A stretch of 61,823 nucleotides of DNA, filler included, from Kipferlia bialata (Eukaryota): NCBI GenBank assembly GCA_003568945.1. It is 3 parts of 2 records of this genome, joined end to end, with 100 filler letters (N's around TTAATTAATTAA, not from the genome) between each part and the next. Parts side by side here need not be neighbours in the genome. Positions count along the whole stretch, not along the records: positions 1 to 31,592 come from BDIP01000105.1; 2 more parts are not named here. The stretch is one strand, 5' to 3'. The notes below the pieces were generated by a model. It saw only the letters and a program-made list of their open reading frames with translations. It was not told the DNA's origin and did no database searches. Numbering within the stretch: the stretch's first letter is position 1; every line of letters starts with the position of its first letter. Below, one piece after another: positions 64 to 61,775 of this stretch. The position numbers and the translations under genes are program-made.

Positions 64-3000
64 CCGAGGCCCTTGTCATGCAGGACGATGTCAACTGCGG
101 CCTATCAGTCATTCTCACAACGGGCACAGACAACAGCATGGTGGTACGCATCCCTCCTTTCTTAGGAAGAGACCTTTCTCTATCACACACACCCACTCTC
201 ACCCCAAGTGGACCACGCCTTGGACCTGTGACGCCAACACAGCCATTGAGTGCCATGGGACTGAGGTGACTACTGTTATAACTACTAGAGTAGATACTGT
301 AGTGTATCATGACTACTTGAATTAGTAGGTACTGGACTGTGGGAGTCACGTCAACCTCTAATCACCTCCATATCCTCTATACAAATAGAATGTATAGAAT
401 ATATACTACATATTCTCTCACCCTAGTGTGTTGTCAGCACCCCTCTGGCCATTGACCCTGACACCGATGTCAACCCAGACCAGGACGTGACGGGGAAGAT
501 CGAGGTCTACTCAGTGGACACGGGTGAGTATGTCTCTCATTTTGATACAGACTACATACAGTATACATACTATATGTAGACTCAATGATAGACTATATAC
601 ACGATACATGATGCTTCCCGAGGCTCAGGTGTGTATTACTCACTATACTACCACTCTCCTCACCCCCCAGGCACAGCAGTCAAGACAGCAACCATATACG
701 GTTACGTCTTCTCTGACGCTGATTTCAAGGTGAGTGTAACGTAATCACCATACCCTCCACCCCAGTCTAGAACCACTGATGTCTCCCAAAGTGTATATAC
801 TAAGTAATGACACAGGGTATTGGTATGGGTGGCTCTCTCTCCTTTGAGGGCGACAGGATTGTGGCCTCTCCCACTCTTGGCCAGACAGGGCCCATCCAAG
901 TGTACGACTCTCTCTCTCTCTCACTCCTTCCTGTAGTAGTTCCTGTCTCACTGGATTCCACACACCCTCTCTCCCTGTCTATTCCCCCTCCTTTCCCAGC
1001 TCTATCCACTATCTACCCTTACAGGTTTGACCGTGCTACCTCAGGGGGTACTGACTGGGTACTCACCGGATTGGCATGGAATGTACGTCCCCCTTTGCAC
1101 CACTTCTCTCTCTCTCATCCAATAGGACTTCACTACATCTGACTACCATTTCTCTCTCTCCCACTCTCTCTCACCAATTAGGACTTCACCGTCTCTGACC
1201 CTGCCTGGAGCACCTATGTCGCATCAGTGGGCAACGACGTGTACTCCTTCTACCCGTACGTGACATGATCTAATCAACCTTCCTTCACAAACTACCCACC
1301 TACACATAGATACTAGTACCTTACATATAACCGCAATATGTATATACGTATGAAATATGTATCTGTGTACCCACCCCAGACAGATGGCTGTCTACGATGC
1401 CGAGACCGATACCTTTGCATCGACAGAGACTGGGGGGGTCATGCAGTACAGACAGGTACCCTAGATACTGTCTATAGTATATATTACAGACGTACTAAGT
1501 ATACATATATACTACATCGAGATATACAATATAGGTAGGTCGGGGGGGGTCATGCAGTACAGACAGGTATATATTGAATACTCAAGTACAGACAGGTACC
1601 CAGTGGTGTAATTGCTATCTATCCTGTATCTTTCTCCTCCCTTGAAACACACACCACTCCTTGCTCGCTCTCTCTCTCCCCCTTGCTAACCCCAGGTCTT
1701 CACCGACTCCCTCTCCATCGACTCTGTGTCACAGGGGGTAGAGGCAGGCAAGGGTTTCACAGGGTCATACCAGCTGACAGACGTCGACGGTGGTATAGTC
1801 CCCAAGGTATCCCTCTCACCTACACCTGACCCTCTACACATCCTGGAATATATACTACGCTGTAATTTAGTACCACCCGTTCTCCATCAAACCAACCCAC
1901 CCCAGACGCTGTCCTCCAACGCCCTCTTCCTGCACAACATATCCTTCTGGACATCAGCAGAGTGGGACGAGGGTACTGAGGGCTACACATTCACTGTGGC
2001 AGAGAGTGACACATGGATGGCAGACGGACCTCAGCAGGTAGTGCTTCACAGTCAGACTCTCTCTCTCATTTACACTCCTTCACACTGTCTTTCAGCACAT
2101 GGTGGCGCCTCTACTCTTCCTTTGTCGACCTACCCCTTTCAGTCTCTCAGTCTCTTTCTCACCCTCACCCCAGGTTGACCTGTACATGGACCTTGTCTCA
2201 GATGACACTGTGGCCCTGCTCTCCGAGGTATATATAGTATATAGTATATAGTATATAGTACACACACACACCTTATCTCCACTGCACTCCACCCTGCACC
2301 ATCTCTCCACCCCCAACCCCAGACTGTCGATGTGTGGGTCTATGTCACAGAGCCCCAGGTCGTTGAGAGCATTGCAGCCTCCCGCCCCCAGGGCGCCATC
2401 CAACTGCTCTCTCCCTCTACCACAGGTATTCCCTCTCTCCCTTCTCTCTCTATCATACGTAGCAGGGATCTGTATTTTTAGGGATCCACATAGTGTTGCG
2501 CTACATATCCCTCACACTAGCTGGTGCCGGTGTGGGTGTCTCCATCTCTGCGGGTACCGATGCCGAGTGGGAGGGGCAGGACGGGGGGGAGCTGCTGGTG
2601 GTAGGGTCTGAGACAGGCCACTGGTACACATACAGCCTCGACGATAGCACAGGTAGGTTACTCCTGTTGGGGTTCGAACTATGTATATATTTATCTGTGG
2701 TTTGCGGTTTCTCCCCAAATATTCGATTCATCATTTTACCCCCCAGGCTTCTACGAGCTCATCAACACAGAGTACGAGGAGGGGTTCGGAGGCACTCTGG
2801 AGATGACCTATCTGGTATGTCTCACTATCGTTGTTTGTACAGTGTATCAGTATTACCCCCTCACCTCCCAGCAGTACTCTGGATGCCTGAGGTCCTTCAT
2901 GGTCATGTCAGACCCAGACTCGAGCAAGGTGAGGCCATATATATACTATACTCCTTATACAATATACTCCAGTATTTACAAATGGGGTGGGTGGGTCTTC

Positions 3001-6000
3001 ATGGTCATGTCAGACCCAGACCCAAGCAAGGNNNNNNNNNNNNNNNNNNNNNNNNNNNNNNNNNNNNNNNNNNNNNNNNNNNNNNNNNNNNNNNNNNNNN
3101 NNNNNNNNNNNNNNNCAATATACTCCACCATATACAAATGGGGTGGGTGGGTCTTCATGGTCATGTCAGAACCGGACTCAAGCAAGGTACAAGCTATATA
3201 TATTTACACTACACTATATACTATATACTACACTATTTACTATTTACTATATACTATACTATTTGCTATTTACTATACTATATACTCATGGGGTGGGTGG
3301 TCTTCATGGTCATGTCAGACCCTGACTCGGGCGAGGTGGGGGTATATTGATATACTATATACTATATATACTACTATACTTTACATACTCCTGGGAAGGT
3401 TGGTGTTTGATATACTCCGTCTCTATCTCGCTCACTACGAGCCCCAGTGGATACATCTGTCTCTATTCCTCTATACATACCTATTCTCTCTCTCACCCCA
3501 GGTGATGCTGAAGGAGTGGGACGAGAACAACCTGGAGTGGGACCTCGTTGACGATACCCTTCTGTCCGATGATCGGTTCACAGACCTGGGGGGGTCTGGT
3601 GAGTAGTATTTGTAGTATGGCAGTGTCGGTATCACCAGGAGACACGAACAGTGGAGAGATGTGGTGATTCCCCCTCACCCCCTATCCTCACCCCCAGTGG
3701 CTATTGGCTGGCCCGGGTGGTACGGCTACTACGCCTTTACCGCGTACTACCTGGACTACCTGATGATCGCTGCATACAACACATGGCCAGGTAGGAACCA
3801 TGTGTGTATCAGTATCTATACTGATACTAATACGATTACCTGGGCCAATTACTGGGACTACTACACACACACCTCTGACGCTAGGCAAGACCACCCCTGA
3901 CACTTCTGTTCCCGACGGATTCGTGTGTGCGTCCATGAAGCCTAGGATATCACTCGGAGGTACAGCCTACTCCATAGCGGCCATAGTATTTACAAATGCA
4001 CAAGATATTCGTATCGTCCCTAACTACACCCTTCTCTCACCTACAGGATCCTATCTGGCCCTCACTGGCGGAGAGGACAGTTACGCCTATGTCATCGACC
4101 TCAGTGACACAGGTAGGGATATAGCTCTCTCTGTTGCTACACCGTCCTCTACACCTTCCTCTACCACTTTCCTTACCTCCAGAGGCTGAGTGGCAGCGTC
4201 TCTACTGCTCCACAGGAACCGTGACAGACGTTGTGGTGTACGAATTGGATCTGGACCAGTGGCCGAAGTACAACATTGGGCTGGGCCTGGTGTCAGATGA
4301 CAGTCCAGACATGAACGGGGATATCACAGGTATGTATATGTGTATGTGTGTGCATGTATATACGGTGATATCATAGGTGCCGCCACATCATCCATCCATA
4401 TACAATAGAGCATGTATACATATATATATCTCACTCGCAGGCACCATCACGATGTACGAGTACTCCAAGGAGTCAACTCCTTTGTATATATACATCTATC
4501 TATATATGTACAGATATATGATATGTAGGTAGGCATGCATTCCTAACCCCCAGGCACCATCACCATGTATGAGTACTCCAAGGAGTCAGCCACCCACGAC
4601 GATGGGTTTGTCTACAAGTCAACTGTCTATGGCCCTGCAGACGCCTTCCCTAACGGGGTATGTACCCCCCTCTCACTCTCTCTTTAGTCTTCCACCCCTT
4701 TCTCACTCAGGATCAGACGTCTGGAATAGCTGCCTGTGAGTTTGTTGACATGAAGAATGAGTACATGACATGTACCTACGCAGATGGACAGAACGGACCA
4801 GCCCTCACGTGAGTACTCTCCTTCGTTCTCTCCCCCCTCCTCTCTCTCTTGCTTATTCTCAGATACCACTATATATATATGTGTATATATATATATGCTT
4901 ACTCCCAGATACCACTAGTACTATGATATATATATATATATATGCTTACTCCCAGATACCACTATGAGGATGCCAACGGAGACTATGAGGCAGACGATAC
5001 GGGAGGCCAGTCATACGTCCTGCAGCATGTGGACTACCCCTTCAGTGTACGTATATATATCTCTCTCATACTACCCTTCGCCGCTCTTTTCTTATAGGTA
5101 CTCTACATATACTTGCGGTATACGTGGATGGCCAGACCACTTTTGATTAGATATCTCCCTCTCTTTCTATCTTGCTCCTACGCTACCCCCTATTCCCTGT
5201 GCTCTTAGTCAGGTTACTTGTACATACTCACTATGTCTTATACCCATCTAATGCCCAACTTATACCCCCCTTATACCCAACTTATACCCCCGTTATACCC
5301 ACCTTATGCCCAGGGTACCCAGGATACCTTTGCCGGAGATGTGGCGAGACTCCATGAGTACACGTTTGTCGCAGATAGGTACCCTTCCCTCCCCCATATT
5401 GTTGCTGTATCTATATGTGTACACTACCCCCACTACGTACCCCTTACCTATATATGTATACATACTACTACTATATAGGTAGGTCCACCTCACCCCAGCA
5501 CAGCCCTCGTTCCTGGCTCCACTACCGCTGCTGGAGGTATGTGTATGTGTGGTAGGTGTATAGTCGCTATAGTATTGATGCTGTAACTGACATACTAGGT
5601 GTGTATGTCATGCGTGATGTCTATGCAGACGAGGCCACTCTCAGTGTGACTGAGTACACTCTGACTGAGGAGGAGGGCACTCTCTCTCTCTCTCTCCTCA
5701 CTGACAAGAGCGACTCCTCTTCCACCCTAACCACACCCCTCCTCGATGGCCAGCTCTGGGTCGAGGTGTACGACTCACAGGGCACCCTCTCCTCAACTGT
5801 GGCCACCTACACATTCGACGAGACTGCCTACACATACACCTTCGACGTGACTATGCCTGTGGTGGCTGGCACCGCTGAGGTCAAGGTGGTACTGGCCGAG
5901 TGGTCGATGCTCGATACCAAGCTAGAGTTTGATGTCAAGATTGACGTCCTGTTCACATCTACAGACATTTCTAGTCTGACCGGTACCTCTACTTGTGGCA

Positions 6001-8550: not shown

Positions 8551-9795
8551 TATGGTTTGATATGTTACGATATTGTACGCGCCTTGTGTCTCGTATCTGA
8601 CGTCAGGGTATCAGCCAGGTGAACCTTCTCACACAGACTGCGGAGGAGGGAGAGCTATAAGTACCCCTTCAATCGACGGTATAGGGACTTGGATATATAG
8701 TTAGAGTAGGAGTCTACCTGCTCTACCTGTGGGGTGTATCTACTATTGTGTTACGAATCCGCTGATTTGGTATATAGAGTGCCGAGGTAAACATAAATTG
8801 TATTTGTAGTCGTTGACTGTGTGGTTGCATGGTTTGTACTGCTTGAACCCACTCAGTGTGTAACTCTGTGAGCTCTACCGTACACCCACTCTAAAGTCAT
8901 ACGCTGCCTTTTACCAGGCCAACTTTGTTCGAATGATTAATTGATATAGAAAGACTAACCTCAGTCACCTATTTCATGGGGAGTGTTGTCAACCTAGGGC
9001 AAGGACCAGCCCTTCGAGAGATCTGTGTCACACAGGCCGTTGCTAGCTGTAACCAGCCTAGCCCAGTCGGTCAGTGATTTCACACGCCTGTTGAAGGTAA
9101 CCTCTAATGACGGTGTGACTCTTGACGCGGTCGCTGTAGCGGTATACGAGTCGTATCCGTTAAACGAACAGGTGATATGGCAAGTTCTTCACGCATCAAG
9201 TGCTCTTAACTTTAGAGTCTTAAGTCACCATTGAGGGGCTCTTTGGTGCCGAGGGAAACCAATCTTAAGCTACAACCTTATGAGATCAACCCGTGGCTGC
9301 TGCTCTCATTCAGGTAGCATACGTTGATAACTCCTGGAACACAACCCCTGGGTATCATGGAGTATATTCAATATACTATATTGTTCTTAGTACAATCTAC
9401 TACTTCTTCTTGAAAGGCACACAAGTTGTGTGACACAACCAAGGGTGGAAACTTTCCACTGGAAAGTAGGCATATTGGTGTGCACTAGCCGATACTTGTA
9501 TCATCATGTCTATTCGCATCCGGACCAGTCCAAACATATAGCAATGATTGACTCTACGCACTTGTGAGGTGGTCGGACCTACATGGTTTGTATATAGGTC
9601 CGCCAGTACGGATCCTGTGACAGAACCTGTCAGACAGGACCTGTCACTGCCTTGCGGTATGTCAGTGACAAATGTACAATGAACAATGTACACTGATCAT
9701 ATACACACTCTATTGTCTCTTAGTTAACATGTAAATATACAATTGAATACACAGGAATATGGAAGGGAGACCCCCCCTCCTCTCTCCCTCTCTCT

Positions 9796-11365
9796 TTACT
9801 CCACAGACCCAGGGAGAGACACCTCCCGTGCTGGAGCCTCCATCGAGACCTCCTCCTGCCCCTGCTCCGCCTCCACACTGGCAGTATCAGTGGGGTTGGC
9901 CTCGAGGTCGTCGGCCTTGGACTCAACGGAGCTGCGTCTGAGTCTCCTGGGCCTGACTGCATCCATGAAGGGAGCCACACCCACCACAGCGTCACCCACA
10001 GTGGGTGAGAGGTAGGTGGCAGCTACCACGGCAACAGGGATAACAGCCACAGCAGCTACCAGCACAAGGCCCCAGATACTGCCACCCTCGACGGTAACAC
10101 TGCCTGAGGTAGGAGTAAGAGAGACAGTGTGCATTAGAGCTTTGGAAGAGAGGTGAAGTAATGGCGTTCAGAGAGAGAGGTGATGAAGTTGGCTCCACTC
10201 TACCTGTGGCAAAGGCGACGCCGTCAATGGCAGCAGAGAGAGAGACGTCTCCCTTGGTAGAGAGTGACGCTGCAGCCTGGTACACAGAGGCAGCAGCCAC
10301 CCAGGCAGCAGGGTGGGCGACACCACCCACTGATAGCACCACGTCACTGGATGCCTCTATCGTGTTGCTGTACTGGTCGACAGGGGACATTGAGACGGTG
10401 AGGGTGTCGCCCTTGTTGGCGACGGCCTGGTGCGACATGGAAGAGAGAGAGGGGTAGACAGGGCCGGCGACAATGGTGACACTTCCCGTCTTGAACTCTG
10501 CTCCTGAAGGTGAGGCAGGAGACCGATAGACCGATAGATGGATAGATAGCTGACAGAGGAGAAGGGTAAAGAGGGCTACAACCAGAGAGAGAAAGAGAGA
10601 GTACCTGACACTCCATCATAGATGACTATAGGCTGCTCTCCAGCTGTGGTGAGGCCTGTAAGGTCAGGACACTCCCACCCCATAACAAAGGAGCCTGGTA
10701 TAAGGGACTGGAGACAGAGAGAGGACGGTTACTATGACAGGGGAGGAAGATAGGAGGGTATAGGTGGGGGAAAGTCCCCTATTGCTAGAGAGTGCCAACC
10801 ACACGTACATGGTGCGGGTGCTGTGTCGTTTGGGAGGCCGATGCTGAAGGAGTAAGGGTCCCTGTGGTCTGGGATGATGAGCACAGTCTCGGGCGAGTAA
10901 GGACTGAACGAGACAGAGACGGCATCCCCGGCAACAGTGGCTGAGGTTTGGATAACGGAGGTTGCGGCATCAGGGACACCGCACTGGGTCTGCACAGTGG
11001 CCTGGGTTAGGTATATACTAGGATACATAAGTATATAGAGAGCCATATATATAGTATCAGGGACACCACACTGGGTCTGCACAGTGGCCTGGGTTAGGGG
11101 TATGAGTATCTAGTACATATATATATGCTAGATACACAAATATATAGAGAGCCACATATAGAGTATGAGGGACACCGCACTGGGTCTGGACGGTGGCCTT
11201 GGCTAAGGAGTATAGATATAGATATACAGATCATATACGGGTATATATATAGAGAGAGCCATATATATTGTATGAGGCACACCACACTGGGTCTGGACGG
11301 TGGCCTGGGGTAATGCGGTAGGGGGGGGGGGAGGGAGAGAGAGAGAGACAGTGGGGATTGCATGC

Positions 11366-11411
<46 letters not shown>

Positions 11412-11425
11412 ATATATACCTATGC

Positions 11426-11468
<43 letters not shown>

Positions 11469-11930
11469 TACATACTTGGTCAATGTACCCGTGAAGGCAT
11501 TCGTCTATACTATATAATGATTATTATATAGTATGTATTATATAGTATACAATATATACCTGGTCAATGTACTCGTGACTCCTGACATAGGCTGCGGCAT
11601 GGAACCCGGTGGCCGAGTTGGGCGTGAAGGTGAAGGAGTATGTCTGGGTGGCATTGTCCCACACTGGAGTTATGGGAGACAAAGAGAGAGGAAGAGAGGG
11701 AGAGAGTACCTGGGGATATGGGATCCTCAGCCCCTACCACATTGGATATCTCAATTGTGAATGTCTCTGGCTCCCCGGCCTGGGAGTTGGGGAGAGAAAG
11801 GGGGGGGGGAGAGAGAGAGAGAGAGAGGGTGGAGGGGGAGAGATGTGCACCTGTGTGTTTGTGGTACTGAGACTGCCTGACCCGTCGTAGTAGGACATGG
11901 TGTTCCCATACTGGTCCTCAAGAGTGACAT
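9796..11930 (-). CDS. Multi-exon type I membrane protein with Ig/filamin-like repeats (5'-truncated)
   Basis: Spliced exons (VTLE)DQYGNTMSYY.. / AGEPETFTIEISNV.. / WDNATQTYSFTFTP.. / ATVQTQCGVPD.. / ..SMSPVDQYSNTI..; TM IWGLVLVAAVAVIPVAVVAATYL; stop at 9796. Confidence 0.7.
10968..11312 (-). repeat. Four tandem copies of 3' splice site + exon start (ATVQTQCGVP)
   Basis: Copies at ~10970-11005 (functional), ~11056-11092, ~11167-11200 and ~11274-11308, separated by AT-rich spacers. Confidence 0.9.
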
Positions 11931-12013
11931 GGGGTTAGAGCAACTCTCAGGTGATATATATAGTTAGTGATAAATATATATTGATAGATAGATTGACCTG
12001 GGGTAGAGACGAT

Positions 12014-12048
<35 letters not shown>

Positions 12049-12071
12049 GGGGGGGGCCCCCCCACCCCCAG

Positions 12072-12686
12072 CCGATGAGGTGTACAACATGGCCGAGGAG
12101 GGAGATGAGGAGGTGGACGAGGATGTACTCGAGATGATACAGGTGCGCACGGGGTCTCATTACAGTGTGGCGCCATGATGAGTGTCATCCATATAAATAT
12201 AGTCCCCCCTCACCCCCTAGGAGACCAGCAGACACATGGATAACACTACGTCTGATGCATACCTAGGAGGGTGGTGCGACTGGATCCAGGACGTCCAGTA
12301 CCCAGAGTGCCCAGGTGGATACTATATAGTGCATAGTCATACAAATACTATATATATACTATATATGCATTGTCATTGAGTTCCCGCAGTGCCCATGTAC
12401 ACAGTGGGTTACGTGTACACATAAGTATAATCAAGTGGATACACTAGCATATACACTACCATGAGTACCCAGAGTGCCTGTGTGTGGCACTGACGTCTCT
12501 CTCTTTCACACACACCCTCCTCCCCCCCCCCTCATGACAGAGTGTGGAGAGGCCATGCGTGAGGTTGTGCTGAACATGGACACCCTGTCGGACATCGACT
12601 TCATGTGGGGGGACTCGGGGACAGGCCAGGTGTGCCAGTGTGAGACCCACCGACACATCATGGCACTCACATGGGCATCCCACTAG
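12072..12686 (+). CDS. DUF1963/YwqG-like domain protein, C-terminal three exons (5'-truncated)
   Basis: Exons 12072-12142, 12221-12314 and 12541-12686 splice in frame to ..DAYLGGWCDWIQDVQYPECPECGEAMREVVLNMDTLSDIDFMWGDSGTGQVCQCETHRHIMALTWASH*. This fits the recalled LGGxPxWxQ..CPxC..MWGDxG pattern of DUF1963 proteins. Confidence 0.65.
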
Positions 12687-31592: not shown

Positions 31593-31692
31593 NNNNNNNN
31601 NNNNNNNNNNNNNNNNNNNNNNNNNNNNNNNNNNNNTTAATTAATTAANNNNNNNNNNNNNNNNNNNNNNNNNNNNNNNNNNNNNNNNNNNN
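31593..31692. other. Artificial contig-joining linker (44 N + TTAATTAATTAA + 44 N)
   Basis: Six-frame stop linker centred in exactly 100 nt. Confidence 0.95.
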
Positions 31693-32308: not shown

Positions 32309-34540
32309 GTGTGTGTGTATTCAATTATTTATACGTATATACCCTTACCCCCAGGTAACACCGACCTCAACAATGCCTTCAGTGCCGGTCTCAATGAGTT
32401 CCTGTCAGACGATACAGAGGACGGTACGTTTATACACTGAATATACAGTATATTGGTATATATTTAGTAGTGTTTAACTATATATTTACAATTTATGAGT
32501 TCCTGTCAGATGATACAGAGGACGGTACGTTATTACCATATGTATACACTATTTCCACACTCTATGTACACTATTTATATATTTATATATTTCATTATAA
32601 GGTAGTATTGGAATATGTTGGTATCACTTGAGTTTCTGTCAGACACACTGTTTATTGTGATATGATCTCGGTCCTGGATACCCTGACCCCCAGGCTATAT
32701 TATTGTGTATATAGTACAGTATATATAGAGTTGTATAGTATAGTATATGTATATACACTGACCCCCAGGCTATGTGGCCATGATGAACACCCTCTATGGC
32801 CTGGAGGTCGATGTGCCTCTGTACAAGACAATCAGGTATATAAATTTATAATGAATGAGTCATTTATACATAATTATATACATATTTTATAATTATATAT
32901 ATATATAGTTATAAATATGTAATTATGCATTTGTATGTATGTGCCTCTGTACAAGACAATCAGGTACCTCTATTGAATTATTTCAATTATATGTTGTACT
33001 AGCTCTTATACGTTGGCTGTTATGTCAAATACTTCACCTCAAGTATTTCTCAGCGATTGTGTTTGCATTCTCTGCATGCATTTAGCATGTGCTAACATCA
33101 GTGGCTACTGGCCCTCCCTCCTGGATACCCCCACCCAGGGCACACTCAGAATGGCACTGGCCAGACACACAGTACGTGTGGTATTATGAATATTCCGTAT
33201 GTATATGAGTATTCTGTATATGTACCAGTGCAAGGATTTGTGTAGATTGAACCGTCTCTCATTCCAGGCCACCATCGGATACTCTGCTGAGAGCAACCTC
33301 CTCGGAACAACGGCCCTCCCAGGCAAGATTCATGTGTATATGTATATTATTTGACGATGTATAACTATTATTATAGATACTTTCGTTGGTTCGATATGTG
33401 AGTATATGTCCCTCCCGGGTGTACACAATTAGTATGATTAGAATAGTTCCATTGGATAATTGTTATAGTTGTTATCATTGTTATAATTGTTGATACAGGA
33501 AATAGCTGCCATATATTTTACATATAATGGTATGGTATAACACAAAGTCATTAGATTAATTGCTGATACAGGCATTGAGCGCAAGGCCATTGCATACATC
33601 CAGGAGAGGTTCCGCGCACAGTACCTGGTAGCAGACTTCAGGTATACCTTCTCTCTCCCTCTACACCCCTACTACCAACTTTGCCCTCGTTGAGTTCCAT
33701 TGAGGAGATACTGTCTCTCTCTCCCCCTCTACACCCTTATTGTCAGCTTTGCCCTTGCTAAGTTTGCCACCACTACTCTCACTCTCTCTCTCTCTCTCTC
33801 CCTCTACACCCTTATTGTCAGCTTTGCCCTTGCTGAGTTTGCCACCACTCAGGAGATGCTTTCTCTCTGTCTCTNNNNNNNNNNNNNNNNNNNNNNNNNN
33901 NNNNNNNNNNNNNNNNNNNNNNNNNNNNNNNNNNNNNNNNNNNNNNNNNNNNNNNNNNNNNNNNNNNNNNNNNNNNNNNNNNNNNNNNNNNNNNNNNNNN
34001 NNNNNNNNNNNNNNNNNNNNNNNNNNNNNNNNNNNNNNNNNNNNNNNNNNNNNNNNNNNNNNNNNNNNNNNNNNNNNNNNNNNNNNNNNNNNNNNNNNNN
34101 NNNNNNNNNNNNNNNNNNNNNNNNNNNNNNNNNNNNNNNNNNNNNNNNNNNNNNNNNNNNNNNNNNNNNNNNNNNNNNNNNNNNNNNNNNNNNNNNNNNN
34201 NNNNNNNNNNNNNNNNNNNNNNNNNNNNNNNNNNNNNNNNNNNNNNNNNNNNNNNNNNNNNNNNNNNNNNNNNNNNNNNNNNNNNNNNNNNNNNNNNNNN
34301 NNNNNNNNNNNNNNNNNNNNNNNNNNNNNNNNNNNNNNNNNNNNNNNNNNNNNNNNNNNNNNNNNNNNNNNNNNNNNNNNNNNNNNNNNNNNNNNNNNNN
34401 NNNNNNNNNNNNNNNNNNNNNNNNNNNNNNNNNNNNNNNNNNNNNNNNNNNNNNNNNNNNNNNNNNNNNNNNNNNNNNNNCCTTCTACACCCTTTATTGA
34501 TGTTCAGGTGTCTTCTTCTCCCCCTCCGCTGTATCCTCCA

Positions 34541-34575
<35 letters not shown>

Positions 34576-36780
34576 ACCCCTAATCCCTAGGTGTCTTCTT
34601 CTCTCCCTCCGCTGTATCCTCTATCCCCCTATGCCCTGATGCTGGGTGTACCGACACAGAGGAGCTGCTAGAGCTGATCAACATGCCCACATTCACAATG
34701 TGCTAGTACGTGACAACTGTATATACAATTTCATTACACTATAATGGGTTGTGTACTTTCATATATACATATTAACTGGATACATACCATTTGTTACATT
34801 TCAATCAGTTATTTTTTCTTTTATGCGACCCTTACCCCCAGCTATGATGCCAGTGAAATCCCAGCTGTCAACTTCATGCTGGATGCATTCGGTAACGAGG
34901 TGTGTCTAGTACACATATATATAGATTGTGTGAGGGTATATGTGGGTATATCTATATATTATCTTACATGTATGTATACATATAGATATACACATGGCAC
35001 CTGTCAACTTCATGCTGGACGCATTTGGTAACGAGGTGTGTTATGTGTGAGCTATATCCCTATCTGGGTAACTCTCTCTCCCCCTCTCTCTACACCCCAT
35101 TCACTCCAGGATCTCTCCTCCGAGTACTGTGTCAAGACCCTCTGTGACTCAATCGAGGATGCATTCACTAGGACAAAGAACAACGAGGTACTCCTATTTG
35201 TCTAGTAGTTTATGTACCAAACCAAGTATCTCACTGCACTACTTCTTTCATATTGTTGTTCTCTCTCTCCCTCTAAATCCTTATTCTCTCTCTTCACCCC
35301 CAATTCTCTTTCCCTCTACCCCCTTATTCCCAGTGTGACTTTGTCCTGGCAGACACTGTGCTGCTCTCAGCATACAACACGGTGAGTAGTGTTTGTAGAC
35401 ACATATATATACATACATGCAGCTTACAACACGGTGAGTACATTCGCACACACACATATATATATGTATAAGGATAATTATTAGTAAGGAAGTTACATCT
35501 CACCTTAAATTAGATATATAGATTATCACTTGTCTGGCGGGAGATCTCTATGTGTTTCATTGTGGACCCTCTCCCCCCCACCTTCTATCTATCTCTCCCT
35601 CCCGCCTTCTCTAATATCACCCTTAATATCAGGCCTGTCTTGCTGAGAACGACGCCAGTGCCTGTCTGACATACCCAACCACAGACAGGTAAGGAGACGG
35701 TAGTAATGTATGATATATAATATATATATATATATATAATAGTACAGTTGATGAATCATGGTATTCACTTCAAATCCCTATTTCATTTGTCTGTGTGTAT
35801 ACATATGTCAGTGCCTGTCTGACATACCCCACCACAGACAGGTAGGGATATGTTATATGAATGGTATACAGTAGTACATGTACTATATATGTGTAATCAC
35901 ATGTCAGTGCCTGTCTGACATACCCAACCACAGATAGGTAGGGAGACGGTAGTATTGTGTCATATAGAGTTCATTCACACACATATATATTCATATATAT
36001 ACATATATATATATATATATACTCCTTTACGTATCTTACCCCCAGGGAGTACTACACCATCCCAATCAGCGAGTCCAGCGCCCCAGCATTCAGGTTCGTG
36101 TCCCTCTATCTGCCTATCTAGATTCCTCAATCGACCTTGTTATATTATAATTATGAGGCTACGGGAACTCTTTCTCTATATTCTCACTCACTGTCTCTTC
36201 AGTGAGTATCTGTTCACGGTGGCTGTATATTTCTCTCATATCTATTCCTTCTGAGTGCATATGAGTGATTGTCGGTCTCTCTCTTCGGGTCTTATGCCAA
36301 TGATATCTCTTCTCTCTCTCTCTCTCTCTCTCTCTACACCCTTAATTCCAGGCTTGATACTGGTACCACAGAGTCCACCATCGATTTCTTCAGCCTGTCT
36401 TTCAAGACTACCACCGTCTACTTCAGTCTGTCCCTGGTGACACTCGTCTTTGGTCTCACCATTGCCGTAGTAGGTGTGTATATTGCAATGCTTGTGTATA
36501 CACTACATATAGTCACATATATATAATAATTGAATGTAAATAGTAGTAGTTCAGTCTTCAGTACTTCAGTCTGTCCCTGGTGACACTGGTCTTTGGACTG
36601 GCAATTGCCATAGTAGGATAGTACTCTGTGCACAGTAATTGAGTGTGTATACAACTACTGTGTATATGTGCGCTCTTTATATGTTATATGTATGTCTCAC
36701 CCCCAGCTGCGTACTACATCTATGCCTTCTGCTACAAGAAGAACCAGTCCTCCATCCTGTACAGAATAAGGTTCAGATAA
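32035..36780 (+). CDS. Membrane-anchored protein with tandem type 2 periplasmic-binding-protein (SBP_bac_3-like) domains; 5'-truncated, internal gap
   Basis: About 16 exons splice in frame: ..YYIAGV..GNTDLNNAFSAGLNEFLSDDTEDGYVAMMNTLYG..TQGTLRMALARH..GIERKAIAYIQERF..FALAEFATTQEMLSLCL..[gap]..CDSIEDAFTRTKNNECDFVLADTVLLSAY..; TM VYFSLSLVTLVFGLTIAVVAAYYIYAFCY then KK; TAA 36778-36780. Confidence 0.6.
33875..34480. other. Assembly gap (N)
   Basis: N run inside the PBP2-like gene. Confidence 0.95.
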
Positions 36781-42744: not shown

Positions 42745-43589
42745 TCAATCGTCCTTCCTGGCGTTCCCATATGGGTTGTGTGGAGGTGTGCTTGCCTCCT
42801 CTGCGATGCCCTCTGACATACCCTCTGGGGAGTGTGCATCAGGGGAGGCAGAGAGAGAGAGAGAGGCGGGGGTGGGGGAGGGGGAGGCAGACACGGACTC
42901 CTCAGCCTCAACCTCATCAACCTCTACCTCGCACACTGGTATGTGGGGCATTCTGAGTGACTCTGCGACTCTCTCTCTGCCACTCTTGATGAGTGACTCC
43001 CTCCACTCCCCTAGCAGTCTCTCTGTCTGCCCCTCTACACCCTTATGCCCCCTGGCAAACATGGCGGCATGGGCCTCCTGCCCACTCTGCTCCATCACAC
43101 GCAGACAGCCGGGGGCATCGCCTGGGGGTGAGTGTATGGGTATACTAAACAGTATATATCTATATCTACTATATGTATAAAATGCATATACCCCACCTAT
43201 CTGATACAAGCAGAGGAATGCTATGTTGTATGCCCCCTCTGCCCATATATAGACTATTTTCCATATATTCTATATATACCATACATACTATACCATATAC
43301 AAACTATATACCCACCTGTCTGATAGAGACATAGGAATGCTATGTTGTATGCCCCCTCCTCCTCTGCCTGTGAGGCCAGGTGGGTCAGACCGTCAGTGTC
43401 CTCAGTCACACTCAGGATGGTCAGGGCGCTGCCATAGTCCTGGGGTTAGTAAACATAGATCCACTAAACCCATAGTCCTGGGGTTGATGTATATAGATAG
43501 AGAGGGAGTGTGTCTGTGTGTGTGAGAGAGAATGACAACTCAGGATGGTCAGGGCGCTGCCATAGTCCTACAGTGAGGTATATATGTAT

Positions 43590-43631
<42 letters not shown>

Positions 43632-46600
43632 TCATATCACTCAGGATGGTCAGGGCGCTTCCATAGTCCTGGGGTTGTTGTATAGATATATATATATATA
43701 GTCACTATTTATAAACACCAACCTTAGTTGCTATGTAGCACTGCACCGCCACCCCATCGATATATATACAATATACAAAACAGTACAGTATACATATCTG
43801 TATTAACATGTTCCACTAACCTTTGTGGCTATGTAGCACTGCACCGCCACCCCCATGGCCCCGTGGTCCAGGGCACGCTTGGCAAGGGTAGGGTAGGAGC
43901 CTGGGGGTAAGGAAGTGGGGGAGTGAGCGCCAGTACATGTACTGTATACACATATATATATATAATACACACCTGTGAGCCCCTCTGTCTGCAGCAGTGC
44001 CAGGGCATCAGAGTATCTGTGGAGCTGACTCAGCAGACTGAGACCCAGGGCGGGGGAGGGGCTGAGAGCCAGGGCCTGAGGTCAGGTAGAGTATGGATTC
44101 ACTCGCATAATAGATATATACCACCCTGTACAATATACATCACCATGCCTCCGTCGGCATGTCCCTCTCCTGTATGTACTGTGCCACTCATATACCATAC
44201 CATACACTATACATATACATATATATATAAGAATAGGATACACACCTCTGCGAGCATGCCCCTGTCCTGCATGTACTGTGCCACCTGGTCCCTCACTGAG
44301 ACAGTCTCAGAGGACACGAGGGTGGAGGCCTCACTAATCTGGGGGTCAGAGAGAGGAGAGGGAGGGAGGGAGAGAGATATGACGCCTCACAGAACTAGTA
44401 GTAAGGAGGGCACATGCACACACTTTCAAGATATCACATGAACATCCCCTACCTTCCCGCCCTCAATCAGTGAGTATGCCTGCATCTGCCTTCCATTCAC
44501 AGACACAGTGGTCACAGAGCCATCCTTGGCAAGAAGCACACACCTGGGGTGAGGGATATATGTATGTATGCACATACATACTGTATACTGCACACCCACC
44601 TGTCCTGGCAGAACCCGAGCAGCGTGTCCTCTGCCTTGACCCCCCTCCTCACTGTGTGCCTATCCACATACTCCTCTGCGTCGTGCATCCTCTGGGCATA
44701 CTCAGGCACCACATGGTGCAGACCCCCAGTCGATGCATCGATGAAGTGCAGCACCCCGTGGAACCATGCCGCACTGGAGACAGCGTAGGGCAAGGCAGCC
44801 ACCAGCTCGAGTGCCCCCTCCACCCCCTCCTCCCCCACATCCTCACCCTTGGCCGTGGCAGAGGCTATCACGCCCAGGTCACTCTGCATGATGTAGGTGG
44901 TGTCCTCGGTGGATATGGACAGGAGGGGGGTCCTGGGGGAGAAGACTACGCCCTCAGCCACAACGTTGATCTGCTGCACAAAGGCGCCCTGGGTCAGGGT
45001 ATTTATGTAATGGATGCAAACACACTTGTGATCACGAGCTGATGTAGGTTATATAATCAATCGTAGTATCGTAGACCCCTTACACAATATTCTTCTAGTA
45101 CAGCACTCCCTACCTGCCACGTGAAGAAGTCCAAGAAGTCTGGTCCCCTGACACACAGGAGAGGGCCACCAAAGACAGCCTGGGGTGAGGTATATACAAT
45201 AGTGATAGATGTACAAACACACATACACTCATACACAGTATAGAGGGGGCCGCCAAAGACAGCCTGGTGGAAGACAAGAACAGTAGAGAGAGAGAGATAC
45301 AATATAATCCACCCTCTTATATCCCTACCTCAGCTGGATAGTCGAGTGCCAGCTGCTGTGCTGTGTCTGGGGATGCCCCTGTGAGTATGGACACAGACCC
45401 TCCCTCAAGCACAGCCAGGTCCTGGTGCTTGGGGTCATGCCTGGGGGGTGAGGGATATACACGATAGTACACATATATATAGTATAATTACTTGTATAAC
45501 ATATATACACATATATAATAATATATACAGCAAGGTCCTGGTGCTTGGGGTCATGCCTGGGGGTGAGGGTACATGGATATCTGTACACAACTACAATGTG
45601 GTTCAATATAAACATGGACTATGTATGTTGCCATATGGCCAGACCCACGTACATGGGTGATACTTACAAACAACTCTATGTAATGTGTGTGGGTACCTCC
45701 TGCCTCTGCTGCCCTGCCATGATACCCTCCGCACTACAGTATAGACATACTAACACTGTATATATATACACACACTATATATACATACATATCCATACCT
45801 CCACGCTGTCTGCTGTCCTGCGATGTACCCCTTCTGCATATACACACACTCTCTCTCCCCCCTATTATATATATATATATATATATATCAGTGTACACAC
45901 CTCCATGCTGTCTGCTGCCCTGCCATGTACCCCTTCTGCTTCCAGGACAGGGTGGAGTACACAACGACCTGGCGAATTAGCTATACATGGATATATATTA
46001 ATATGTCTACATATACATATATCTATATATATAGAGAGAGAGACACACATCTGGACAGGGTGGAGTACACAACAACCTGGGGGGTCAGCTATACATAGGT
46101 ATGTTGATATGTATACATACATATATATATATATATGAGTATCAGTATAGACTGACACACTCATATGGACAGGGTGGAGTACACAACTACCTGGGGGGTC
46201 CGTCATTGATGATATATATATATAAGTAGATATAAGAATAAGTATATGTATATACTGTCACACACTCATATGGACAGGGTGGAGTACACTACTACATGGG
46301 GGGTCAGTGGATACCTATGGAAGAGAAGATTCTCGAAACGGCATATTCACAAATACTGATACTAATCACATATCCACCATACCCACCTCGTTGTCATGGA
46401 CCACCGAGCACAGCCTGCCATTGGGGGACATCTCAACCTGGGGGTCAGAGTCAACATGAGTACACTATACCCTACACTACTCTATGTATATCAGTATTCT
46501 GGATACTATACATACCTGCTGCACCCCTGCCACTGACAGCTGGTCCAGGGCCCTGACAGAGTGCAGGGTGCCTGTGTCAGCGGAAGTGTCAGTATCCATC

Positions 46601-49330
46601 CATGATATATACAATATAGATACTATTCAATAGTATCAGTAGCTGCATACATATATATATGGTGTATAGTATGGACACTGACAGAGTGCATGGTACCTGT
46701 CTCCCCAGTGGGTGCAGTGCCCTTGGACCCAGGAGAGGGATGGCCGGCACCAACAAGCATGCCTAGCATGAGGGTATATATGTAGATATATATATGTATG
46801 TATGTGTCATTATATATCTAGTTTCAGGGGTGGCCGGCACCAGCTAGCATGCCTGGGGGTGAGCAGTGGAAGTGAATCATGCACATATGTGGATATGGTA
46901 TATACACATCCATACCTTGCACCAGCCCCTGCTGACTAGGGGTGATGGTGGGCTCTGCTCCCCCAGCCACAGCGGAGAGGGTGCCGGCAAACACCATGCG
47001 GCCAGTCCTAGGGGGTGAGGGGAGGGGGGGTTATGGTGAAAATACATGATCACACAGATATATATCATTATTAGTGCTCTTCCCCTACCTCTGGTCGAGT
47101 GATGCCAGTGGTCTGTCCAGGCCCAGCTGTACCACGACACACCCCGTGTCCCCACCTATCACTATCCGGTTGGAGGAGTGATCAGCCTCCACACACCACA
47201 CGCGGCCTAAGGTGAGGAGGGTAAGCGGTATATATGTAACAGTACGTGCATATACATGTATTCTAGACATAGAATGAGTGATAAGCCTCCACGCACGGCC
47301 CGGAGTGAGGGTTTATGCGTCCATATCTGATTACTACTTTACACTACATGCAAATGAACTTACCCAACTATATGTCTGCATGTCTTGTCCAACTCCATTC
47401 ACACACATATATATATATATATATATATAATCCGAGATATACTTGTAGTAATATCCAATACATACTCACCCAGCTTGTGTCTGCATGTACATATGTATAT
47501 AATTATTAATACAAATACTCACCCAGCTTGTGTCTGCATGTCTTGTCCAGGGCCAGGCCCTCCCCAGAGACAAGGCCTACCAGGCCATCCTCAGAGCCTG
47601 GGGGGTGAGGGTATATAAATAATATATCGATAGAGAGATACTATTGTGTGTATATCTACGCCCACCCATACCTGTCACCATGCACTCCATAGTAGCAACA
47701 CCAGTGGGCTGGAATATTCTGTAATCTCTATATATCCCTCTATCTCAATATCTCTTTATATATACACCCCTACCTGACACCATGCAGCCCATCCTAGCAT
47801 GGTATGCGAGGCATGTCACGTTGTCTGTGTGGACTGGGATGGTACGGAGGGCAGAGCGCGTGGCAGTGTCCCAGATCTTGACGGTCCTGAAATATGAACA
47901 TATACTAGTATAGACATGGACACATACTGATACATACATATATACATTTCTATATAGTAGAAGAACGAGTGGCTGTGTCCCTGATCTTGACGGTCCTGAT
48001 ACATAAGAACACACCTGTATACGTATACATACATATTCATACACCCACATACCTGTCATCACTGCCCGATGCCACATAGACTGTGCTGCCACTGGACAGG
48101 TAGCACACAGCGTTGCAGTCTGCAGTGTGGCCCTTGAGGGTGTAGAGGGGGCCAAACACACCCTCATTAGGGGTGTAGTGGCCGGCATACACCTGGGGGG
48201 TTAGTTGGTATCAAAATATCCAATATTCAGAATTAGTATTTGACAATACTACACAATATAACAGTACCTTCGTACTCTGCCTTGTGGGCCCTGTCTCTGT
48301 GACCCCCCACAATGTATATGTACTATTGTATAATATAATATTACACATCACTATATACTGCAGTGGTTGTACCTTCGTGCTCTGCCTCGTGGGCCCTGTC
48401 TCTGCCACCCCCCACACCTTGACCGTCCCGTCCAGTGAGGCAGAGGCCAGGGAGGCACCATCTGGACTGAGGGCTAGGGCCATGGCATACCGGGTGTGGC
48501 CCTCGTAGATGCGAAGACAGGCCTAGGGTCAGTTGGGTATATATAGGTGGGTGGATGGATAGATGGATAGAGAGAGAGAGAGAGAGAATATGACACTGCG
48601 GGTGTGGCCCTCATAGATGCGGAGGCAGGCCTGGGGTGAATAAGTGTATACACTTATACACAAACAAACAAGAGACACACCTCTGCTGTACCCTTGTTTG
48701 GTAGTCCCACCCCACTTACATAATATATACATTCAGTGTTAAATCATATGTATGTATACTGAGTATACATACACCCTACCTTTGTCTGGTAGTCCCACAC
48801 CCTGATAGTTGCGTATAACAATAATTACTCCATGTATATAATTATATATTGAAATATGAATACATATATATATACTGTTACCTTTGTCTGGTAGTCCCAC
48901 ACCCTGATGGTGGTGTCTAACAATAAAGACTCTGTACATATATTTGTATATATATATATATATATATTAATGTATGAATACATATACGGTATATACACCA
49001 TACCTTTGTCTGGTAGTCCCACACCCTTATGGTGGTGTCATCTCCACAGGACACAAGCCACTTCTGGTCAGGGAGGACAAGCAGGGCCCTGGGGATAAGC
49101 ATGGTGTATCAAATACTAAACACAAAATTAGATATGGGATATACACATAGATGCTTCTGATCAGGAAGGACAAGGAGGGCGCTGGGTTAGTTACAGATAC
49201 ACACTCACTCATACGTATACATAAAGAGGGAGATAAGAAGGACACATAAACCGTACCGGATGTAGTCTGTGTGTGCCTGCCACATGCCCACCCTGGCCTC
49301 GGTGGAGTAGTCATACAGCCTGGGGTTAGA

Positions 49331-49371
<41 letters not shown>

Positions 49372-49998
49372 GGTATACATATACACTCCATACCATAGGT
49401 CATAACACTAAATTCTACACAATACTGGTATGATAATGAAAGTCAAGAGTATATCTATCCACCCCTACCTAATAGTACCAGTCGTCACAAGACACAAATA
49501 GAATATGTACTTCTATACACAGTAGTATCCAGCATATAATACATCTATCTCTACCCTCCATACCTGATGTATCCATCGTCACTGCCAACAGCCAGGGTGT
49601 CTGTGCCGGGGATGAACCTGGGGTGAGTATATACATATAGAGAATGTATCTGAATATATGATTATATGTAAGTCTGTACCGGGTCAAGGTGTCAGAGAGG
49701 GGTATGTGTACATGCACTGATGGCAGCTATTCAGACTCCAGCCCATACCTCACTCTGACTTGGTACACAGTCATATACATTTACATATATATACTCCTAT
49801 ACCCATACCTCACTGCCCTGATTGGATAGACTGCCATATGATAGGTGTACATATCTACCTACACAAATGAATATTTACCTATATATAAATATATATACAT
49901 ACATGTTTGTCCCTACCTCACTGCCCTGATTGGGTATACTGTCACGTCCAGCTGCTTGGCAACCAGACCAGTCGACACATCGTAGATCACAACATCAC
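42745..49998 (-). CDS. COPB2: Coatomer subunit beta-prime (WD40 + coatomer WD-associated region); extreme N-terminus beyond linker
   Basis: Exons GDVVIYDVSTGLVAKQLDVTVYPIRAVR / FIPGTDTLAVGSDDGYIR / LYDYSTEARVGMWQAHTDYIR / ..SCGDDTTIRVWD.. / YEGHTRYAMALAL..ASASLDGTVKVW / YTLKGHTADCNAVCY..ASGSDDR / RVWCVEADHSSNRIVIGGDTGCVVVQLGLDRPLASLD match Sec27/beta-prime-COP order; stop at 42745. Confidence 0.9.
48690..49040 (-). repeat. Four copies of exon end + 5' splice site (..IRVWDYQTK|GT) in COPB2
   Basis: cctttgtctggtagtcccacaccc at ~49003 (functional), ~48881 and ~48779, plus a degenerate copy at ~48691. Confidence 0.9.
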
Positions 49999-50218
49999 CT
50001 GGGGGTCAGTACATATAACATATATATACTATATATATCAGTATATACATCTGGAGCATAGATCACAACATCACCTAAGTGAGGTAGGCAGTGTATATAT
50101 ATATATGTACATAGTGAATACAGTGTATATATATATACAGTGGGTACATCAGAGTCATATATCACAACATCACCTGGGTGAGGGGGGGGGGGGGGGCATA
50201 GCTGAAATATCAAAATAC

Positions 50219-50318
50219 NNNNNNNNNNNNNNNNNNNNNNNNNNNNNNNNNNNNNNNNNNNNTTAATTAATTAANNNNNNNNNNNNNNNNNNNNNNNNNN
50301 NNNNNNNNNNNNNNNNNN
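50219..50318. other. Artificial contig-joining linker (44 N + TTAATTAATTAA + 44 N)
   Basis: Same structure as the linker at 31593. Confidence 0.95.
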
Positions 50319-57273: not shown

Positions 57274-60200
57274 TCAGTCTCCAAGGGGGTTCCCAATGAC
57301 CTTGAGGGCGTGGTCCACAGCAGCCCTGCCCCTGAGGGATTAGAGATATAGGATATACTCAACAGATAGAGACAGAGAGAGAGAGAGAGATAAGAAGGCT
57401 GATCATATATATATGTTATATGGTATTGAATATTTATACCCACCTCTTGTTGGGTCCGAGTCCATTGGGGTCGCCGCTGAGCTCAGACAGAGAGCCCTCA
57501 AGGCTAGGGGTGAGAGGGACTCAGAAACCTTGCTCTACTCCTTGTATTTACACTGCACACCTCTGCCTGGCCTGTTCACGTACATACGCCTGTAGCGTAT
57601 TAAATGAATTTACATAAGTGCGTATATACAGCATACCTCTGCCTGGCCAGTGCCAGTCTCTCCAGGGCCTTGTTCACAACATCGAGGGTGGCAGTGACCT
57701 CGCCTGGGTTAGAGTGAGCATATAGAGTATCTAATATATACAGTACAATATGTGAGTGTGTACACCGAGGTACCCACCTACAGACACTGACTCTGGTACC
57801 GATGGGGGCAGGGGCACGGGCTGGGCCTCACACAGGATGGCGGCACCAGACATCTGGGTGCTGGGGGTGAGGGGGAGAGAAAGGGTGGAGAAACAATACC
57901 GACCCAGACACGATGAGGGGGAGAGAGTGACACATACTCACCCTGAGGCCTCAGGTACAAACTCAGGCTCGTGTGCTCTGTATCCTGGGATCAGAGTAGA
58001 AGAGAGAATTCAAGTATGTTATATCTGGAATAAGAGGAAGAGAGGCGGGTGGAGTCAAAGACTCATATCATTGTTATTGTAACGGAGACGGCAGAGGTAA
58101 TGAATGTGACCAACACATCTATACTATATATATATATATACTCTGCAAAATCATGACTACTTAATGATCTATACCTGTGAAGTGTGGGACCGGGGGCATC
58201 TCTGTGAAGAATGCCCACCTCATGAGTCTGGTCTTGGCCACGGCTGAGGGGTGGGGGGTGGCAGAGCCCTGGGGTCAGTACTCTCAGAAGTGAGTATTGT
58301 ATACATATATGCATTATATATGTATATATACATATCACAAATACAGGACACTGAGGGGTGGGGGGTGGCAGAGCCCTGGGGTCAGTACTCTCAGAAGTGA
58401 ATATTGAATACATAGATGCATTATATATGTATATATATATATCACATATACAGGCCACTGATGGGTGGGGGGTGGCAGAGCCCTGGGGTCAGTGCTCACA
58501 AGGGTAAAGATTGTATACATATATACATTATATACGTATATATACATATCACATATGCAGTACACTGATGGGTGGGGGGTGGCAAAGCCCTGGGGTGAGG
58601 GTATATGAATAGAGAGTCATATTCTTATACTAATTAGTATCATGATCCATGATACTATTGAACATATGGCCAAGGGATACAGGGGTCTGCCTACGTACAC
58701 GTATACACATCTGCTCATCCTACCTTGGATGGGACAGGGGGTGGGGCACCTCCCATGGGCATGGGGCGGGGGGTGGCCTGGAGGGTGAAGGAAAGAGAGA
58801 GGGGGAGAGAGAATGCATTAAACCCACCACATATACTTGTATATGTTTACACTTGTATATGTTTATACCTGAGGCTTCGGCTTGGGAGTGGGCTTGGGCT
58901 TAGTAGCAGGCTTGGGGGTTGGCTTGGGCTTGGCCGCTAGTGGTGAGAGTGTACTATACACTGTACTAGAGAGTCTACAGTGTATACGACACCCACCTGG
59001 CTTAGGCTTTGTGGCGGGTGTTGGCTTGGCGCTAGGCTTGGGCTTGGGGGTGGGCTTAGGGGAGGGCTTAGGCTTGGGGGTAGGCACGGGCTTGGCCACT
59101 GGGTGTTAGTGGATCTACTAAACATGAAGAGCTGTACATTGATACATATCAATTACCTGGCACTGCTGCTGTGGGCAGAGGGGGTGGTGGGGGTATGGCC
59201 CCTCCCTTGGGTGCGTGTGTCTTGGGCGTGAAGGCAGGGGCAGGCAGGGTGGCCGGCTTGACGGTCTTGCGGGGCTTGGCACGGGGCTTGGGCTTGGGCT
59301 GCACAAGCTGGCGAATTAGCGACACATATCTATTATATAGGGTATATACTGTGTTCATGATGGGCTATACCTTCACCACATTGGGCTTTGGCTTGGACAC
59401 AGGCTTGGGGGTTGGCTTAGAGACAGGCTTGGGGGCCGCTGGGGCAGGCTTGGGTGCTGGCTTGGTGTCTGTAGGTGAGGGATGTACTACATAGTATACT
59501 GATATATTGGAATATTACACACACCATTGGTATCCTCCCCCTCAGCATGTCCAATATACTATTATATATATATTATATCTCTAAATATACAACTATATCT
59601 ACCCATACCTCCCAGGGGGTTGTTCATGGGTATCCTCCCCCCCTCCACCCAGTGTGTCCAATATACTTTCCCTCTCCCTCTCTATATATATACACCACAT
59701 ACCTCCCATTGGGTTGTTCATGGGTATCCTCCCCCCCAGCATGGCTGCGATGTCAGCCACTCTAGACGCAGAGGCCTCTCTCTCCATGCCCCCACTCTCT
59801 CTCTCTCTCTCTCCCTCCCTCTCCCTAGAGCTCGGTCTGCTCTTGGCCTTGGGGGCAGAGGAGGCACCTGGTAGGATGGGGGCGGACTGGGGGTTAGTTA
59901 CTAATGTATATATATATATACAATATACCACGGGATAGAAGTGTGACTAGGTATACACACATGTTGATACTGGCAGGATGGGGGTAGACTGGGGGTCAGT
60001 TACTAAGAGGAATGTAACCAGGAGTTAATAAGATACTTGCTGAGGGACATATGATACTATGATAAGAATAAGCCCTGGTAGGATGGGGGCGGACAGGGGG
60101 TGAGATATATACAGAAATAATACCCCATAGGATAGAAACAAGACAATATATATGGGGATAGGCATAATGGTGACACTGGAGGATAGAGGAGGACTGGGTG

Positions 60201-61452: not shown

Positions 61453-61775
61453 GTGTGTATGGGATTGTATGCATATATGTGTGTGTGTGCGTGTATGTTT
61501 ATATAAGTACTGCACAGGGCAATGCTCGAAGAGGCAGGTATGTATGGGAGTGTGTGTTGCGTTACATTATCCATATGGAGAGATATCCATATGGCTACGT
61601 CTATGCTGATGATTGGAACTTGGTATAGGAGGGATATGATATTTGTGCATATGAGTGTTGAGTAGTAGGTGGTGATTTGCGGTATAGCATCCTATATATA
61701 CTGTCTTTGGGATATATGCGTGATTACGGTATTGTAACACACTCCTATTCAGCCAGGATCAAGTGTCGGGTATCC

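Follow-up and report, generated by a model that had tools for sequence, protein, structure and literature searches.

Exon-edge copies in introns of Kipferlia bialata differ from their exons mostly at silent sites

Introduction

Why should a piece of exon that lies within an intron differ from the exon mostly at silent sites? The question is raised by positions 10968-11312 (minus strand) of a 61,823-nucleotide stretch of the Kipferlia bialata genome, here called the window. In this region the peptide ATVQTQCGVP can be read four times, at the start of an exon (from 11001 downward) and in three upstream intronic copies. The sequence-only reading of this DNA had pointed out that the copies use different codons (ACT/ACC, GTG/GTC, TGC/TGT and GTC/GTG), and both the copies and these codons are as it described. 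It suggested that they are still under coding constraint, or that they came from functional alleles. The array and its surroundings are:

10809..11001 (-): real exon of gene B, a predicted membrane protein; the first 33 nt are the copied edge, and the model frame is open to the stop
11002..11055 (-): AT-rich spacer, with the used acceptor at its end
11056..11088 (-): nearest acceptor-type copy; differs at one silent site, AG intact at 11089-11090
11165..11197 (-): middle acceptor-type copy; two silent changes plus one replacement (D>H, far end)
11272..11304 (-): farthest acceptor-type copy; four silent changes plus one replacement
11476..11494 (-): donor type, duplicating the end of upstream exon 11560-11663; shares its intron with the array

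The intronic copies begin at 11088, 11197 and 11304, and an acceptor precedes each of the four. After ATVQTQCGVP, the exon and the nearest copy continue with D, and both far copies with H. The variants are mosaic, as sites 1 and 3 occur in all four combinations. The spacers 11089-11164 and 11198-11271 are kin of the spacer 11002..11055, with a breakpoint in common. The neighbouring intron, 11664-11709, closes with a further copy, weaker at score 9, of the end of its upstream exon.

Results

Exon edges are copied in many introns of the window

Gene models were built in the window, giving 13 genes with 133 introns. The exon at 44602-44988 has a 100% match to a single protein, KIPB_000854, coatomer beta' of Kipferlia bialata, and the coatomer beta' model is the same as this public protein at 881/881 aligned residues. 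Thus, the frames are fixed for the coatomer gene, while those of the other genes come from open reading through our own models. The window consists of three intron-rich scaffolds; the N runs at 31594-31692 and 50200-50319 around the TTAATTAATTAA spacer are scaffold joins, so neighbours across them are unlinked.

Each of 285 exon boundaries was compared, ungapped, with its own flanking intron, and a score of at least 12 was used as the main cut-off; all copy counts below are from this window alone, whereas the whole genome has 124,912 introns (PMC5874029). At this cut-off there are 51 exon-edge copies, against 0.2 expected from non-cognate introns of other genes. They occupy 29 of the 133 modelled introns, and 37 exon ends are copied, 21 donor and 16 acceptor, i.e., both 5' and 3' exon boundaries are found duplicated. 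The orientation is constant and the junction is included in each copy. The median copy length is 30 nt and the median period 105 nt (copy-free introns: 101.5). GT or AG is intact in 44 of the 49 readable copies and lost in five.

Some copies stand outside the main count. These are 12 matches at score 9-11.5, which enter only the 80/132 figure below, the copies 31812 and 31927, whose exon begins with ATG (0 and 1 difference), and indel-broken copies near 45697, 59525 and 60190. The gene at 24100-27961 is outside both the gene models and the count.

The other pairs listed in the sequence-only reading were found with the codons it gave, except that the "four silent changes" between 48490 and 48600 are three exonic silent changes, the fourth being intronic, at acceptor position -3. 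Further copies include:

1543..1566 (+): donor type; 24 nt without a difference from exon end 1455, intron flank differs
2997..3335 (+): three donor-type copies (ends 3030, 3186, 3335) of exon end 2928; N gap inside
4441..4475 (+): acceptor type; repeats exon start 4554 with two silent changes, intron flank unalignable
32495..36616 (+): gene C copies, with ends or starts at 32524, 32963, 34508, 35035, 35841, 35937 and 36616
42745..49998 (-): coatomer beta' gene KIPB_000854; copies in 15 of 22 introns, with 44 silent changes among 64 distinct differences
46678..46696 (-): start of the following exon, copied and fused straight to the donor; the opening of the intron reads as in spliced mRNA
58351..58589 (-): exon start 58268 in three acceptor-type copies; no difference in the nearest, whose flank is 91% identical
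61509..61537 (+): donor type; repeats exon end 61452 with one silent change

The copies are clustered by gene. The coatomer gene stands at one end and five models (C0, E, J, K, M), with copies in 0 of 47 introns, at the other. Copy-bearing genes tend toward more TA-rich introns.

Several other features were seen in the window. In gene C, 33322-33572 (+) is likely a GC-AG intron, and the model frame is open only with a GC donor at 33323. Further on, 33645-33875 (+) holds entirely intronic tandem repeats of about 60 nt that run into a 600-nt N gap, which probably hides a gene C exon. A leucine-rich-repeat-like gene at 37320-39580 (-) has regular 81-84-nt exons and 10 introns without exon-edge copies. 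At 60575-60770, an intron of gene F contains inverted repeats whose arms include GGTACC.

The differences are mostly silent

Within the window, the excess of silent differences is real and has firm statistical support. At score at least 12, 70 of 103 distinct differences (68%) are silent, and codon positions 1/2/3 hold 16, 13 and 74 of them. The share varies with the cut-off, being 80/132 at score at least 9 and 60/81 at score at least 16. For pairs of copy and exon, silent sites diverge by 0.196 and replacement sites by 0.031. The earlier hand tally of roughly three quarters silent was slightly high as a figure, while the excess that it claimed over the expectation for a dead copy is borne out against a strict null, a lenient null and a simulation. 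For a dead copy the silent share should be 0.24-0.30, and 0.39-0.47 if the exon drifts silently too (P at most 1.1e-5). In the simulation, which used the same detection filter and let the exon drift at silent sites and the copy everywhere, the share was 0.40-0.44 with a maximum of 0.58 in 300 runs with a similar number of differences; counted in the same way, the observed share is 77/111 (0.69). A bootstrap over exon ends gives 0.59-0.78. Read in the two wrong frames, only 12 and 11 of the 103 differences are silent and the excess is gone.

The excess is seen both inside the coatomer gene and outside it (26/39), and also when one copy per exon end is taken (53/77). Between copies, 18 of 28 differences are silent. 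Examples of copy-specific codons are ACC GTC in the focal array and CTC TGC TTG for the coatomer exon that ends at 43316. Acceptor-type copies have a silent share of 33/39 (85%) and donor-type copies of 37/64 (58%; P=0.049 vs 0.467), a difference between the two types that was noticed post hoc. CpG decay was considered as a cause of the excess and rejected, as CpG-type changes are only 19 of 103. The direction of the silent changes (S>W 33, W>S 20) is not diagnostic.

Silent counts are even among copies, while replacement counts are over-dispersed (P=0.035). No heterogeneity of the silent share between copies was detected (P=0.88), and replacements are not nearer the copy's far end (P=0.44). 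Nor are the replacements milder than random ones (P=0.22); among them are a stop and, within a WD40 motif, a W>R change, and the copy at 44149 is plainly decayed, with five replacement codons. In 16 of 16 informative pairs the farther copy is more diverged, silent sites included, although this trend is reversed in the uncounted arrays 32035 and 59886.

Splice signals differ by swaps and intron flanks align poorly

Between the copies and the gene's own splice sites we see swaps between working splice-signal variants, unlike decay. The acceptor signals differ at 156 of 322 positions, a number inflated by C-run shifts, and of these differences 80 score better and 76 worse. The mean change is -0.16 bits, where -1.12 is expected if all differences were decay and -0.56 if half were (P=0.003). 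The corresponding test for donor signals is borderline (P=0.06). Copy donors score 7.4 against 7.3 for real donors, and copy acceptors 8.4 against 10.8 for real acceptors (random: -3.3). Of 23 copies, 18 have a branch-like motif, compared with 86% of real acceptors and 21% of random AG.

Outside the exon part, the copies and their exons have little in common. The median flank identity is 0.56 (null 0.49), and it is at least 0.8 in 2/48 and at least 0.7 in 10/48. Even among the copies that are identical to the exon, 5 of 8 flanks are at or under the 95th percentile of the null. Had the copies been fresh tandem duplicates with 3% decay, their flanks should have been preserved. Taken together, undecayed splice signals and poorly alignable flanks suggest that both sides of the junction diverged while they were working and then decayed briefly. 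Homology past the breakpoint gave no significant signal (P=0.20) and microhomology a weak one (P=0.08); flank identity shows no relation to silent divergence (P=0.40), and among 42 distinct far-end 4-mers no common motif is visible.

The copies are present in the DNA and are probably not used

The published K. bialata assembly is, according to the genome paper, a short-read SPAdes assembly. Contigs of a DNA run over 4000-12100 (8.1 kb) agree with the window and contain no other letters; this run may be the assembly's own reads, and two loci were compared. One contig (4000-4864, depth 480) holds the 4441 copy together with its exon. Another (10982-11098, depth 444, with 492 beside it) reads through the nearest focal junction, with 43 bases to one side of it and 74 to the other. 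Both far focal copies are contained in a contig of depth 303 (11069-11313), with neighbouring pieces at 277-282. No excised DNA form was seen at the two loci, and none of the joints listed (15 of 25) skips a copy, with the proviso that contigs drop rare forms. Excision between the repeats, one of the routes named in the sequence-only reading, gains no support from a shorter form at these loci.

The public coatomer protein, a predicted model of one gene, uses the outermost splice sites and no copy. The genome paper describes the K. bialata gene models as drawing on transcriptome data. A further run, presumably of RNA, yielded only shallow pieces within exons (depth 3-7), and no joint is listed at the compared introns. 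Our own gene model, when unconstrained, took several copies for micro-exons. Mutually exclusive or alternative micro-exons were considered and rejected, as each copy has one junction only and the far ends are without a common motif. Coding constraint that persists because the copies are used at present is not supported: the replacements are no milder than random and include the W>R change and the stop, five GT or AG are lost, and the public coatomer model is copy-free. From the sequence, it appears unlikely that the copies are at present used in mRNA or excised from the DNA, and they are probably not used today.

Discussion

A probable origin of the copies as edges of other alleles

We lean towards the view that the copies are dead now but once were working exon edges of divergent alleles, joined to the gene by offset exchange between homologues. 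An origin from functional alleles or divergent haplotypes had been among the earlier proposals, and it is favoured by the splice-signal swaps, the unalignable flanks and a silent divergence that is even while the replacement divergence is variable.

In a hyperdiverse population, exons would align between alleles but AT-rich introns hardly would. A broken end in the intron of allele A could then rejoin about 30 nt inside the exon of allele B. The joining would probably occur by template switching or polymerase-theta, which are suggested because the species is without Ku70. In the product, the exon edge of allele A and most of its intron would be followed by the edge of allele B, splice site included, and then by the intron of B; the gene would survive if the outermost donor and acceptor stay in use. 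Later unequal crossovers between an edge and a copy would add units beside the exon, each retiring another working edge, and units added in this way would share one breakpoint, as in the focal array.

Two clocks would be expected from such a history. Silent and splice-signal differences would measure the divergence of the alleles, about 0.13-0.2, and replacements a short decay after retirement, about 0.03-0.05. When the decay is subtracted, the allele divergence is about 0.13-0.17, and 0.196 is an uncorrected ceiling. Some copies would be plain same-allele duplicates; the nearest copy of exon start 58268 is a young one. We also count within the allelic origin a variant in which the edge was first duplicated on the same chromosome and the exon edge was then replaced by that of another allele; this would give an equal silent signal.

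The background fits such a scheme. PMC8516963 has entries for Spo11, Dmc1, Msh4 and PolQ in K. bialata and gives none for Ku70; metamonads are also described as lacking canonical end joining. In the hypervariable Schizophyllum, crossovers are mainly in exons and the silent diversity is 0.13-0.20 (PMC4209137, PMC4576712). However, some observations stand against an allelic origin. The silent share is uniform and the replacements are not at the far end, where the two-clock model expects some of both. That the farther copies are more diverged, also at silent sites, suggests age and not a fixed distance between alleles. Further, the donor-type copies barely clear the lenient null, and flank identity does not track silent divergence. 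A second allele or strain was not found in the 8.1 kb of the DNA run, in metagenome contigs (searched by protein and by a degenerate exon pattern) or among proteins of near or shorter length, where the best other matches have 27-34% identity.

A wider version can be speculated on, which we hold to be possible but rather doubtful. Here, a genome-wide "revolving door" would exist in K. bialata: homology-only repair between hyperdiverse alleles would deposit edges in introns and swap them back, the introns would be a selected archive of allelic variants, and one genome would thereby show recombination between divergent haplotypes in a metamonad.

Alternative explanations

The copies could instead be old duplications in ongoing exchange with their exons, in which edge and copy swap by conversion as well as expansion and contraction, so that a copy often returns to service as the edge and harmful changes are purged indirectly. 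This would account for the conserved core of about 30 nt with decayed flanks, the equal silent share in all copies, the distance gradient and the mosaic variants of the focal array. However, conversion on the same chromosome alone yields only the 0.40-0.47 of the null, and some copies, such as 44149, are plainly decayed. A rate of exchange sufficient for purging would presumably also erase a silent divergence of 0.2 unless the alleles were already diverse, so ongoing exchange would also need high polymorphism. We consider it unlikely, yet less so than duplication within one chromosome of the kind known as mirages, which is improbable as the general cause. There, silent exon sites would change several-fold faster than the dead copy, and slippage would scramble the AT-rich flanks. 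The layout fits mirages, divergence rises with distance, and some units, such as 58375, are near-perfect tandems. But silent sites would have to mutate about five times faster than the copies, with the adjoining DNA changing fastest of all, CpG changes are too few, and the swaps between working splice signals would be unexplained.

Use of the copies in RNA, by a non-canonical, repeat-guided splice or a template switch that substitutes a copy for the exon edge in some transcripts, would predict codon-periodic constraint and splice sites of working grade, as seen here. Each copy has a single splice site, though, the 42 far-end 4-mers reveal no motif, the replacements are not conservative and include the W>R and the stop, and the public model equals a copy-free model at all 881 residues; we therefore find such use very improbable. 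Programmed excision of DNA between direct repeats, as with ciliate pointers, would give shorter somatic genes with chimeric edges. Every spacer is flanked by direct repeats and the depth dips over 11069-12004 (277-303 vs 492). However, the contigs that bridge copies (444 and 480) are near single-copy depth, the low-depth stretch includes copy-free pieces flanked by poly-G, no listed joint skips a copy, and the copies are already removed by normal splicing, which leaves excision with hardly any credence. No more credible is an assembly artefact in which alleles or strains were stacked in tandem. Silent differences and unrelated flanks would follow from stacking, and N gaps lie within some arrays of this short-read SPAdes assembly. 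Still, stacked alleles would be without these junctions between copy and spacer, and separately built contigs repeat the junctions letter for letter (depth 480 for 4000-4864, 444 across the nearest focal junction), which argues against stacking. No second version is present among the contigs listed, for two loci and a run that may be the assembly's own reads.

Implications

To our knowledge, sex has never been observed in metamonads. If the copies do come from other alleles, a single genome would hold evidence of exchange between divergent haplotypes, and of high diversity, in a group without observed sex, and the estimated silent diversity would be near the highest reported (0.13-0.20, in Schizophyllum). 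The same process would explain how mirages arise, a point described as unclear in PMC3087553, and mirages would be predicted to be commonest in highly polymorphic species. Whatever their origin, the copies mislead gene prediction, and they raise the question of how the spliceosome, on introns of about 100 nt, passes intact splice sites that are nearer.

Comparison with known systems

The sequence-only reading knew of no description of such a system. The layout is in fact known, as the mirage of amphioxus, while the silent and splice-signal signature and the frequency of the copies were not found in print. Mirages are tandem duplicates across an exon-intron boundary, 5' or 3', with AG/GT mostly kept, splicing reportedly undisturbed and units of 10-160 bp; described loci are Adh3, the globins BflGb6 and BflGb9, troponin C and PGBD5 (PMC3087553, PMC3902484). 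The K. bialata copies are likewise direct tandem duplicates over the boundary at either edge, with AG/GT mostly intact. However, the BflGb6 units are 81-100% identical throughout, while in K. bialata only the exon part is so alike. Since this falls short of whole-unit similarity, we call the copies mirage-like. A few loci are reported in amphioxus, in contrast to 29 of 133 introns in one window here. The word "synonymous" does not occur in the main text of PMC3087553 or PMC3902484, and a report of silent bias in exon-edge copies was not found in literature searched largely without subscription journals, where by title and opening of the abstract the two mirage papers alone were relevant.

Schizophyllum commune has the regime that an allelic origin needs, with a silent diversity of 0.13-0.20 and crossovers concentrated in exons. 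These were, however, measured in crosses and populations, and the abstracts mention no exon-edge duplicates (PMC4209137, PMC4576712).

In the Rogers model, cited in PMC3087553, introns are gained by tandem duplication over an AG/GT proto-splice site. A similar arrangement is found in intron 46572-46696 (-), which starts at its donor with the 19-nt copy of the next exon's start. This intron is a candidate for intron gain by duplication, or for a fragment of an intron-less allele. However, it accounts for 1 of the 51 copies; the rest add length to introns already there instead of giving rise to further ones.

Ciliate IES pointers are direct repeats that flank AT-rich sequence, and in K. bialata direct repeats likewise lie around AT-rich sequence. 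The K. bialata repeats are, however, located at spliceosomal junctions, and it is the full-length form that dominates the DNA contigs.
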